DNA of 32,000 nucleotides from an uncultured archaeon (lineage in GTDB: Archaea; Aenigmatarchaeota; Aenigmatarchaeia; QMZS01), in the NCBI GenBank assembly GCA_964547015.1, contig CAZJKT010000010.1:6694-38693 (forward strand). The letters run 5' to 3'. How positions within the stretch are numbered: position 1 is the first letter of the stretch; each line of letters starts with the position of its first letter. The notes under the pieces are model-generated. The model ran no database searches. It had not been told where the DNA came from and saw only the letters and a program-made list of their open reading frames with translations. The position numbers and the translations under genes were made by a program. Of the stretch, positions 8,008 through 28,041 are shown piece after piece.

Positions 8008-9546
8008 ATGGGCTCTGAAGAAATAGAAGGGGGCTCGGAGAATGTTATCTCGCCGGAGGAATTCAGCGATATTGAAAAAGATGAGAGGGATATGGAGAAA
8101 AAAAGAGCGGGGCCTTTTAGGTTTCTGCAGAAAAAAGGCCGCGAGGGTTCGGCTTATGAATCCCCTGTTGCCGGAGCTCAAGGCGAAGGAAGTTCCCTTA
8201 CTGATTTGAGCCTTCGGCTCGAAAGGTTTGGGGGGAGGGTTGAGATTCTTGAAGAGGGGAGAAAAGAGACTGAAGCAAGGCTTTCAGATATTTCAGAAAA
8301 GATAGGGGAACTTCGCTCATCCCTCATTGAGAGAGATAGAACTTTTAGCGATATTTCTGTAAAGTTTGAGCGTCTGCAGGATATTGCTCAGGACCTTGAG
8401 CCCCAAAAGCTCACACGAGAGCTTGCAAAAAGGCAGCAGGAACTTGAGCAATCTAAGGCCCAGACAGAATCCAATACAGAAAAGATTGACTCAATCTTAA
8501 GAAAAATGAAGGATATGGGGGAGGATTTGGAGAAAATAAGGGGTTTTAAGGATTTGGTTTCTGTGGCTGAAGAGCTTGATAAAAAGGTAAAAATGGTTGA
8601 CTCGTTAAAGAGGGATACTGAAAGGGTTGCGGGGAAGTTTGAGACCCGGCTTTATGAGATGAATGAGGCATTAAGCAGGACAAGATCAAACCTGGAGAAG
8701 GTGAATTCCAATGAGGATGCGCTAAGGGAACTTATGCGCGCTCAGGATGAGCTTTCGCTTAAGGTTGAGAATCTTGCCAAAAGGGATGAGCTGGGCTCAA
8801 GCGAGAAGAAGTTTGAAAAATCCTTTGAGGAGCTGAGGTTTGATATGGAGTCGCATATATCTGAATTGGCAAACGCGCTCAAAAATAAGGAAGCCAAACA
8901 AGCCTCCGTGGCAGATAAAGAATCCCTAAAAAAGATGGAGGGTTTAGCAAACAGCCTTTTGGAAGAAAACAAAAAGCTGGCTTCTCGCCTGGAAAATATT
9001 GAAAAAAAGGCGGGCAATATAGATAAGCTGGAGTCGGAAATTTCCCGAATTTCAAAGTTGGGCGGGGAAAAGCATGGCGGGGCAAAGCTTTCCGAACAGA
9101 TAGAGGCAATTCAGCAAAAAGACAGGGAGGAGGCAAATAGGCGCATCTCAGAGCTTGAGCTTAGAATACTGGAGCTCTCAAAGAGCGTTGACCATAGAAT
9201 TGAAAGAAGGGTTACCCAAGAGTCAAGAAATGCCCGGGAAGCAATAAGCGCGCCTGCGGTTGAGGAGGCAAGAATAGCGGAGTGGCCTCAGCCAAGGAGG
9301 CCCGCGGTTGCCGATTCCCGCCTCAAGGCACAAAGCCCCGCAAGCTCCGTAAGCCCCGGTTTTTCGAGAGAGGGGATAAATGCTATGATACAGGATATAT
9401 ACCGAAACCTTGATGAGGGAAATATTACTGCGGCAAGAGGGCAGTTTATCCGGCTTCTTTCAGCATATGAGCGAACTGAAGACAGCAATCCCTTTGTCCT
9501 TGCAAAAATAACGGATTTGCACGGCAAGCTCAAGGAATTTGGATAG
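8008..9546 (+). CDS. Long coiled-coil protein, function unknown
   Basis: The ORF is 7969-9546. The first in-frame ATG is at 8008 (MGSEEIEGG); GTG at 7969 is an alternative start. The sequence is E/K/L/R-rich with heptad character throughout and has no TM segment or enzymatic motif. Confidence 0.75.
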   Translation: MGSEEIEGGSENVISPEEFSDIEKDERDMEKKRAGPFRFLQKKGREGSAYESPVAGAQGEGSSLTDLSLRLERFGGRVEILEEGRKETEARLSDISEKIGELRSSLIERDRTFSDISVKFERLQDIAQDLEPQKLTRELAKRQQELEQSKAQTESNTEKIDSILRKMKDMGEDLEKIRGFKDLVSVAEELDKKVKMVDSLKRDTERVAGKFETRLYEMNEALSRTRSNLEKVNSNEDALRELMRAQDELSLKVENLAKRDELGSSEKKFEKSFEELRFDMESHISELANALKNKEAKQASVADKESLKKMEGLANSLLEENKKLASRLENIEKKAGNIDKLESEISRISKLGGEKHGGAKLSEQIEAIQQKDREEANRRISELELRILELSKSVDHRIERRVTQESRNAREAISAPAVEEARIAEWPQPRRPAVADSRLKAQSPASSVSPGFSREGINAMIQDIYRNLDEGNITAARGQFIRLLSAYERTEDSNPFVLAKITDLHGKLKEFG

Positions 9547-27761: not shown

Positions 27762-27793
27762 CCTTAAGTTTATTTCCTCCCTACTTAATTTAG

Positions 27794-28041
27794 GCCCCTG
27801 TAGTCTAGCTCGGTCCAGGATATCGCCCTTTCGAGCCGGCATTTCTTTTAAAAAGAGATCCGGGCACTCCCAAGAAACAAGTTTCAAGGGAAGGGAAAGG
27901 TTTGAGGCTTTCGAGCCGATGACAAGAAGACAGGCGGAGACCCGGGTGAAGACTTTTCTTGCGAAGAAAAGTCCTCAACGTCAAAAGAAGCAGATTCCTG
28001 CTTCGCAGAAGGAATAGGGTATTCAAATCCCGGCAGGGGCA
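27794..28041 (+). tRNA. tRNA-Glu(UUC) gene interrupted by three modelled introns (anticodon loop 80 nt, variable region 18 nt, T-loop 75 nt)
   Basis: The acceptor stem GCCCCTG (27794-27800) pairs with CAGGGGC (28034-28040), followed by discriminator A. The exon model is 27794-27827, 27908-27923, 27942-27947 and 28023-28041. It gives a 75-nt cloverleaf with D stem GTCT/GGAT, anticodon loop CTTTCGA and T arm CCGGG-TTCAAAT-CCCGG. Caveat: there is one C:C mismatch (30:40) in the anticodon stem. Confidence 0.7.
27945..28008 (+). repeat. Conserved intron module, copy 1 (inside the T-loop intron of tRNA-Glu)
   Basis: GGTGAAGACTTTTCTTGCGAAGAAAAGTCCTCAACGTCAAAAGAAGCAGATTCCTGCTTCGCAG shares identical blocks of 12, 18 and 17 nt with 28991-29056. 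Confidence 0.9.

Follow-up and report, generated by a model that had tools for sequence, protein, structure and literature searches.

Organization of the tRNA-Glu(UUC) locus

The window, by which we mean the whole 32,000-nt stretch of DNA that was analysed, carries at positions 27794-28041 of the plus strand what by its sequence is a single-copy gene for tRNA-Glu(UUC) of an archaeon of the Aenigmatarchaeota (DPANN). Very probably this gene consists of three exons and two introns, not of four exons and three introns as the initial annotation had proposed. Specifically, the predicted introns are one of 98 nt at the canonical 37/38 site and one of 75 nt in the T arm (Table 1). The acceptor halves (GCCCCTG at 27794-27800 and CAGGGGC-A at 28034-28041), the T-arm halves (CCGGG at 27942-27946 and TTCAAAT-CCCGG at 28022-28033) and the anticodon loop CTTTCGA, read at 27828-27834, are all present as described earlier, and the earlier view of the locus as a genuine tRNA-Glu(UUC) gene interrupted by introns, among them a non-canonical one of 75 nt in the T arm, is borne out.

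Joining the exons of the two-intron model gives the 75-mer GCCCCTGTAGTCTAGCTCGGTCCAGGATATCGCCCTTTCGAGGCGGAGACCCGGGTTCAAATCCCGGCAGGGGCA, in which AGGCGGAGAC (27932-27941) stands just upstream of the T stem and which ends without an encoded CCA. ARAGORN calls this product as tRNA-Glu(ttc), 75 nt, with all stems paired, and it aligns gap-free with the intron-less tRNA-Glu(UUC) of locus L012. From the unspliced genomic DNA of the locus, on the other hand, no tRNA was returned by ARAGORN or by Rfam, whether at the gathering score or at E-values of up to 10.

With respect to copy number, a BLAST search of the 908-kb genome (95.6% complete) with the mature sequence matched only this locus and a tRNA-Glu(CUC) gene on contig C1 (C1:34127-34292), which has one canonical intron and lacks the kink-turn module described below. 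The absence of a second tRNA-Glu(UUC) from a genome of this completeness indicates that the locus is essential and not a pseudogene; the initial annotation had held that another intact tRNA-Glu(UUC), together with pseudogene-like substitutions here, would speak for decay, and no other is present among the genome matches beyond 27794-28041. A decaying locus might be suspected from its being missed by standard finders, and yet this reading is extremely improbable, given that no other tRNA-Glu(UUC) is available and that three species share exons conserved at 100% but differ in their introns. The mature tRNAs that the two-intron model predicts for these three species of the genus match at 75/75 positions, for a whole-locus identity by BLAST of 84% to the orthologue in G001 and 77% to that in G002. 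Synteny with dph5 is also maintained: the relatives of the neighbouring genes are named Candidatus Aenigmatarchaeota, and several of them retain the order dph5 to tRNA-Glu(UUC). The putative promoter element TTAAGTTTATTT lies just past the dph5 stop codon and is kept in the two same-genus orthologues, and in other Aenigmatarchaeota CTTTAAAAA-type boxes occur at an equal distance from the tRNA 5' end.

Table 1. Features of the predicted tRNA-Glu(UUC) gene and antisense elements in tRNA introns of the same genome (positions without a contig label are those of the window; G001 and G002, related genomes of the same genus; A1, the seven-sequence alignment described in the text)
Feature	Position	Strand	Basis or content
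Putative TATA-like promoter element TTAAGTTTATTT	27764-27775	+	~24 nt upstream of the tRNA 5' end
Exon 1 (tRNA positions 1-37)	27794-27833	+	Acceptor 5' strand, D arm, anticodon stem 5' strand TCGCC, loop CTTTCG; identical in G001 and G002
Intron 1 (98 nt, canonical 37/38 site)	27834-27931	+	BHB core and orthologues
Antisense element GAAAGG, Glu(UUC) intron 1	27895-27900	+	Complement of tRNA positions 31-36 (CCUUUC)
D'-like box UUGA (non-bulged kink-turn strand)	27902-27905	+	UGA invariant in A1; NNGA in all orthologues
Kink-turn C-stem hairpin GGCT-TTCG-AGCC	27906-27917	+	Stem 100% paired, two compensatory pairs, loop freely variable
3-nt bulge GAU plus GA (bulged kink-turn strand)	27918-27922	+	AUGA, start of the C'-like box
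Exon 2	27932-27946	+	A38, anticodon stem 3' strand GGCGG, variable loop AGAC, T stem 5' strand CCGGG
Intron 2 (75 nt, T arm 53/54)	27947-28021	+	Family membership; 27948-28022 at 54/55 gives an equal product
Exon 3	28022-28041	+	T loop TTCAAAT, T stem 3' strand CCCGG, acceptor CAGGGGC, discriminator A
Antisense CAAAGG, Gln(UUG) intron	C26:-4384		Positions 31-36, CCUUUG
Antisense AAAAGU, Lys(UUU) intron	C9:-30577		Positions 31-36, ACUUUU
Antisense UUAAGU, Leu(UAA) intron	C14:+2720		Positions 31-36, ACUUAA
Antisense UGGAGU, Trp(CCA) intron	C1:-25018		Positions 31-36, GCUCCA
Antisense AUGAGC, Met(CAU) intron	C1:+105194		Positions 31-36, GCUCAU

Comparative analysis of the gene model

When the locus was used as a BLAST query on 40 related genomes, it matched orthologues in the same genus (G001 and G002) as well as in further genera and families belonging to the class. 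This comparison, one of the checks named initially, favours introns of 98 and 75 nt. Every intron-bearing tRNA-Glu(UUC) orthologue (11/11) has a 37/38 intron whose central helix is paired at 4/4 positions and whose outer helix measures 5 bp or more. On A1, an alignment of seven sequences for which pairs were counted over 89 cells, the two-intron model leaves 100% of the cells paired, the pair at 30:40 has changed in a compensatory manner (C:G in five sequences and G:C in two), and pairing falls to 30-56% in every one of the slid controls.

In the window, exon 1 ends with G37 (27833) and exon 2 starts with A38 (27932), which defines a single 98-nt intron at 37/38. The central helix of its BHB is formed by CTTT (27828-27831) and GAAG (27926-27929) with 4/4 pairs, the bulges are CG/A and AC/A (the slash marking the cut), and the outer helix (27823-27827 with 27933-27937) is the 5-bp anticodon stem itself. 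The two 3-nt bulges around a 4-bp helix that characterize a BHB are accordingly present in the relaxed hBH form. An inner helix h' is absent from this BHB, which places the 5' splice site of intron 1 within a large loop. By itself, such geometry is no evidence, as a loose BHB scan of the 248 nt yielded 189 candidates, a number at chance level. Folding of the 248-nt precursor, with an MFE of -86.3 kcal/mol and constrained values of -74.0 kcal/mol for the 53/54 conformer and -72.4 kcal/mol for the decoy discussed below, likewise does not discriminate between precursor conformers.

The three-intron reading removes 80, 18 and 75 nt and takes an 11-nt direct repeat and a GAC repeat as insertion sites or BHB helices. 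Its arithmetic is correct, its 75-nt product is accepted by ARAGORN as tRNA-Glu(ttc), and a weak BHB-like register exists at 27836/27916, the result of a TCGA palindrome within the 11-nt repeat. It is nonetheless very improbable in light of the orthologues and the pair counts. The product carries a C:C mismatch at 30:40; on the seven-sequence alignment its anticodon stem is paired in 62.9% of the cells, with zero covariation; the 18-nt piece reaches at best 3/4 central-helix pairs (by hand); the repeat is missing from the same-genus orthologues; and the other genera have no pairing-capable strand at that place. The initial annotation had itself singled out the mismatch as a weak point, and this flagged mismatch pointed to the correct gene model: GGCGG at 27933-27937 is the true anticodon-stem 3' strand, which is fully complementary to TCGCC, leaves no C:C mismatch in the stem and shows covariation between genera. 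The supposed 80-nt intron, the mini-exon following it (27908-27923) and the 18-nt intron all come to lie inside the single intron at 27834-27931, and the GAC repeats said to bound the 18-nt piece are left with no role.

The products of the two models are identical at 72/75 positions and differ at tRNA positions 40, 43 and 44, the affected segment being GGCGGAGAC in the two-intron product and GCCGATGAC in the three-intron product. For tRNA positions 39-46 the two-intron model predicts GGCGGAGAC, whereas GCCGAUGAC would contradict it. The corresponding junctions are predicted to be CUUUCG/AGGCGG and CCGGG/UUCAAAU for two introns and GAGCCGAUGAC/CCGGG for three.

The 11-nt direct repeat

The exact 11-nt direct repeat CTTTCGAGCCG at 27828-27838 and 27908-27918 was confirmed; the two explanations offered for it, a footprint of intron insertion or a part of the BHB helices, did not survive the comparison. 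The second copy is intronic, most of it being overlapped by the hairpin at 27906-27917, and the repeat was not found in the orthologues, the same-genus sequences of G001 and G002 included; it is therefore neither an insertion site nor a BHB helix, and the strand with which CTTT is actually paired in the BHB is GAAG. Target-site duplications flank an insert and recur, and the 11-nt repeat does not behave in this way. At the place of the second copy the hairpin reads GGCC-AAATC-GGCC in G001 and GGCC-GAACA-GGCC in G002, and GACT-TTAA-AGTC or GAC-GTTAA-GTC in other genera, such that the identity of the hairpin to the anticodon loop is, in the sequences compared, specific to this genome. More generally, repeats that flank introns are not evidence for insertion unless orthologues agree.

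As for its origin, the repeat could reflect local copying of the anticodon loop into the hairpin 80 nt downstream, by patch conversion or template switch, in place of independent substitutions. A single event of this kind would account both for the changed loop and for the compensatory replacement of C:G by U:A in the stem relative to G001 and G002, and an exact 11-mer within 250 nt is improbable by pure chance. However, the conserved module already dictates GGC...GCCGATGA, which left only about six positions that needed to match, and the repeat was picked post hoc among very many windows, with no further patch of the same sort seen. Local copying is unlikely in our estimation. The repeat is due either to chance or to a short local copying event, and whether it arose by copying or by substitutions, it has no splicing role. 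A third exact copy of CTTTCGAGCCG occurs on the minus strand at 8215-8225 of the window, in surroundings without tRNA features, and is taken as chance.

The T-arm intron

Intron 2 is a member of a genome-wide 'NRAAGAC...GTCCTNWAYGTCAAA' intron family, which is characterized by the core GTCCTNWAYGTCAAA and a first hairpin of 10 bp, numbers at least 16 copies in the genome, and occupies 37/38, 53/54, 59/60 and D-loop sites. In the window copy the hairpins span 27951-27973 and 27987-28004. Its BHB is relaxed, with a central CCC/GGG plus G.A (3/4) flanked by 2 bp of outer and 1 bp of inner helix, and its placement at 53/54 is by analogy with the family members that start with N-RAAGAC and with G002 (L003), where the T-arm intron sits at 53/54. 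Family members at 53/54 in tRNA-Ser and tRNA-Met show the same start and 4/4 central pairs (by eye). In G001 (L002) the T-arm intron is located one nucleotide further, at 54/55, with a perfect BHB (CCGG/CCGG), and the 3' parts of the T-arm introns of this same gene are unrelated between G001 on the one side and G002 and the window on the other. This difference looks as if the intron had moved by one nucleotide, or had been replaced, between congeneric species.

The conserved 5' end of the family, TGAAGAC, can also pair with the T-loop TTCA to give a decoy BHB (27947-27953 with 28022-28028), and the tRNA-Ser gene of the window has the same potential (by eye). Cleavage between 27952 and 27953 and between 28027 and 28028, a 59/60-like register, would make use of 4/4 central pairs (TGAA/TTCA) and of the whole T stem as a 5-bp outer helix. 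This register is nevertheless highly improbable and was rejected: its T loop, UGAAGAU, would lack U55, C56 and A58 and be non-functional, a perfect and conserved TTCAAAT stands ready on the 3' side, the register is absent from G001 and G002, and the 5' bulge GAC is paired within the conserved 10-bp hairpin of the family. Registers 54/55 to 60/61 of the T arm were examined, and a valid T loop results from 53/54 or 54/55 only.

The 5' part of intron 1 showed no significant similarity to the T-arm intron family in the window (score 21, reached by 78/500 shuffles). In G002, the canonical and T-arm introns of tRNA-Glu share a 28-nt stretch of 75% identity (L003:1557-1584 and 1673-1700), which hints at modules shared between the two introns.

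A predicted kink-turn and antisense module in the canonical intron

The hairpin that overlaps the second repeat copy is the centre of a conserved element of intron 1. Its layout is that of a kink-turn, with a GA directly 5' of a canonical stem and a 3-nt bulge followed by GA on the 3' side; in the nomenclature of box C/D RNAs, a stem-loop here separates a D'-like box from the beginning of a C' box (R-U-G-A). In A1 the hairpin is preceded by an invariant UGA and followed by NAU-GA, and on the bulged strand ATGA is invariant in A1 and NRU-GA is found in 11/11 orthologues. UUGA-stem-loop-stem-GAU-GA is thereby predicted to be capable of forming the kink-turn or K-loop of an internal D'/C' motif.

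Immediately adjacent is a short antisense element, GAAAGG, which lies one nucleotide upstream of the D'-like box and is complementary to the anticodon region of its own tRNA. This arrangement sets A27897, five nucleotides upstream of the box, opposite U34. The antisense pairing is 6/6 in 10 of 11 orthologues and 5/6 in one, with a constant distance to the box. Compared with the ~8-12 nt expected of a guide antisense, the duplex is just 6 bp, while the N+5 register is exact at U34. A terminal box C (RUGAUGA) was not found by eye at the 5' side of intron 1, nor was a D box 12 nt after the C'-like box, and the kink-turn of terminal C/D boxes seen in a box C/D guide sRNA is missing. With a 6-bp antisense, no terminal C/D boxes and a 12-nt C-to-D' spacing that is inapplicable, the element is a half-mer guide at best. 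Not every archaeal enzyme is known to use half-mers efficiently.

A loose kink-turn scan of the genome was uninformative (303 hits). Motif scans with stricter filters, in which the context of each match was checked, revealed five further canonical tRNA introns that carry a kink-turn or K-loop together with a 6-nt antisense to their own anticodon, set at N+5 opposite nucleotide 34 (Table 1). On this basis we tentatively read intron 1 as a self-targeting single-kink-turn guide for 2'-O-methylation of U34 ahead of splicing or at about the same time, one of six such candidates in the genome, a reading that we hold at slightly under even. Judged from the motifs, it is nearly a matter of balance, tipping a little to the negative, whether the module really guides U34 methylation.

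A purely structural role would dispense with methylation: binding of L7Ae to the kink-turn might stabilize or chaperone the intron, presenting the BHB to EndA, or might protect the excised intron. This is consistent with the single kink-turn and the antisense of just 6 bp, and with the position of the non-canonical stem of the kink-turn, which abuts the BHB central helix where h' is missing. We consider a structural role on its own somewhat unlikely, as it leaves unexplained why a 6-mer tracks six tRNA anticodons at a fixed N+5 register and why the antisense pairing competes with the BHB.

Two further loci were noted in the relatives. At L023:811-960 (QMZV01000069.1, Candidatus Aenigmatarchaeota), a tRNA-Glu(UUC) has apparently three introns (by eye), in the D loop, at the canonical site (35 nt) and at 54/55 (17 nt), and its 35-nt intron contains little beyond the guide/kink-turn module and the BHB strand. 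L018 contains a seemingly three-intron tRNA-Glu(CUC) gene, with introns in the D loop and at 37/38 and 59/60 (by eye).

Proposed processing and relation to known systems

The genome encodes the proteins that such a pathway would require. A splicing endonuclease EndA (PF01974 match, C3:19359-19631; one EndA gene found) and an RtcB ligase (PF01139 match, C3:56416-57720) are present, as are genes for L7Ae, Nop5 and fibrillarin. In the sequence of events we propose, the TATA-like promoter would drive transcription of the pre-tRNA, and L7Ae would bind the kink-turn and recruit Nop5 and fibrillarin. Pairing of the antisense with positions 31-36 would then lead to 2'-O-methylation of U34, with the intron acting either in cis or, once excised, in trans. 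The RNA would subsequently refold into the BHB form, and EndA would cut between 27833 and 27834, 27931 and 27932, 27946 and 27947, and 28021 and 28022, after which RtcB would join the exons and CCA would be added. This order (guide pairing, refolding, cleavage, ligation, CCA addition) is conjectural, and splicing and methylation of the tRNA are themselves predicted from the gene sequence. Taken jointly, the two-intron gene, the intron module and the presumed processing nonetheless form an account that we regard as likely.

Multiple-intron tRNA genes and families of related introns have reportedly been described in Thermoproteales. As there, the present gene combines protein-spliced BHB introns at canonical and non-canonical sites, and relatives of these introns are scattered among many tRNA genes and sit at many positions. 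The present case differs in its DPANN lineage (Aenigmatarchaeota), in introns that are long and structured, and in having one EndA gene found where an alpha-beta pair is typical of Crenarchaeota.

Within the DPANN, an alpha4-type EndA with an L3 insert accompanies heavy tRNA gene disruption, and standard tools are unable to complete the tRNA sets; that survey was made without Aenigmatarchaeota genomes (Kaneta et al. 2018, PMC5829648). The single EndA gene and many non-canonical introns seen here are in keeping with those DPANN archaea.

The classic intron-borne box C/D guide is the intron of euryarchaeal pre-tRNA-Trp (Haloferax volcanii, Pyrococcus sR50), and nucleotide 34 of the Trp, Met and Leu(UAA) tRNAs of Pyrococcus is a known box C/D target (PMC7994747). 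In common with the pre-tRNA-Trp guide, the module described here has an intronic antisense beside a kink-turn box that sets nucleotide 34 of its host at N+5, guide pairing competes with the BHB, and fibrillarin, Nop5 and L7Ae are encoded in the genome. In contrast to it, there is one kink-turn of D'/C' type with a real stem, no terminal C/D boxes and an antisense of 6 bp, and the host is tRNA-Glu(UUC), with the wobble uridine as the predicted target. By its sequence, this U34-directed intron antisense, set beside a single kink-turn, would represent a variant form of the guide in pre-tRNA-Trp.

A further parallel is the elongator tRNA-Met of Nanoarchaeum equitans, whose 66-nt intron contains a stable C/D-like RNA proposed to be a C/D sRNA (Randau 2012, PMC3491384). 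Both are cases of a DPANN tRNA intron outside tRNA-Trp proposed to act as a C/D sRNA, with both functions predicted, and they differ in that the N. equitans RNA comes from tRNA-Met and is drawn with a C and a D box, whereas ours comes from tRNA-Glu. Our literature searches returned no published intron-borne single-kink-turn antisense to U34 for tRNA-Glu.

If the guide is real, these archaeal tRNA introns would gain a function and with it a reason to persist, and the pre-tRNA-Trp paradigm would extend to U34 tRNAs with a minimal half-mer architecture. A guided Um34 would also make two old questions testable, namely for what reason archaeal tRNA introns are kept and what the minimal size of a box C/D guide is. 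For gene finding, the locus illustrates that hand-curated models built on comparison are needed to recover DPANN tRNA sets: nearly the entire tRNA set of this genome is concealed by introns. Over the whole genome, the Rfam tRNA model placed 4 tRNAs above the cut-off, despite its completeness of 95.6%.
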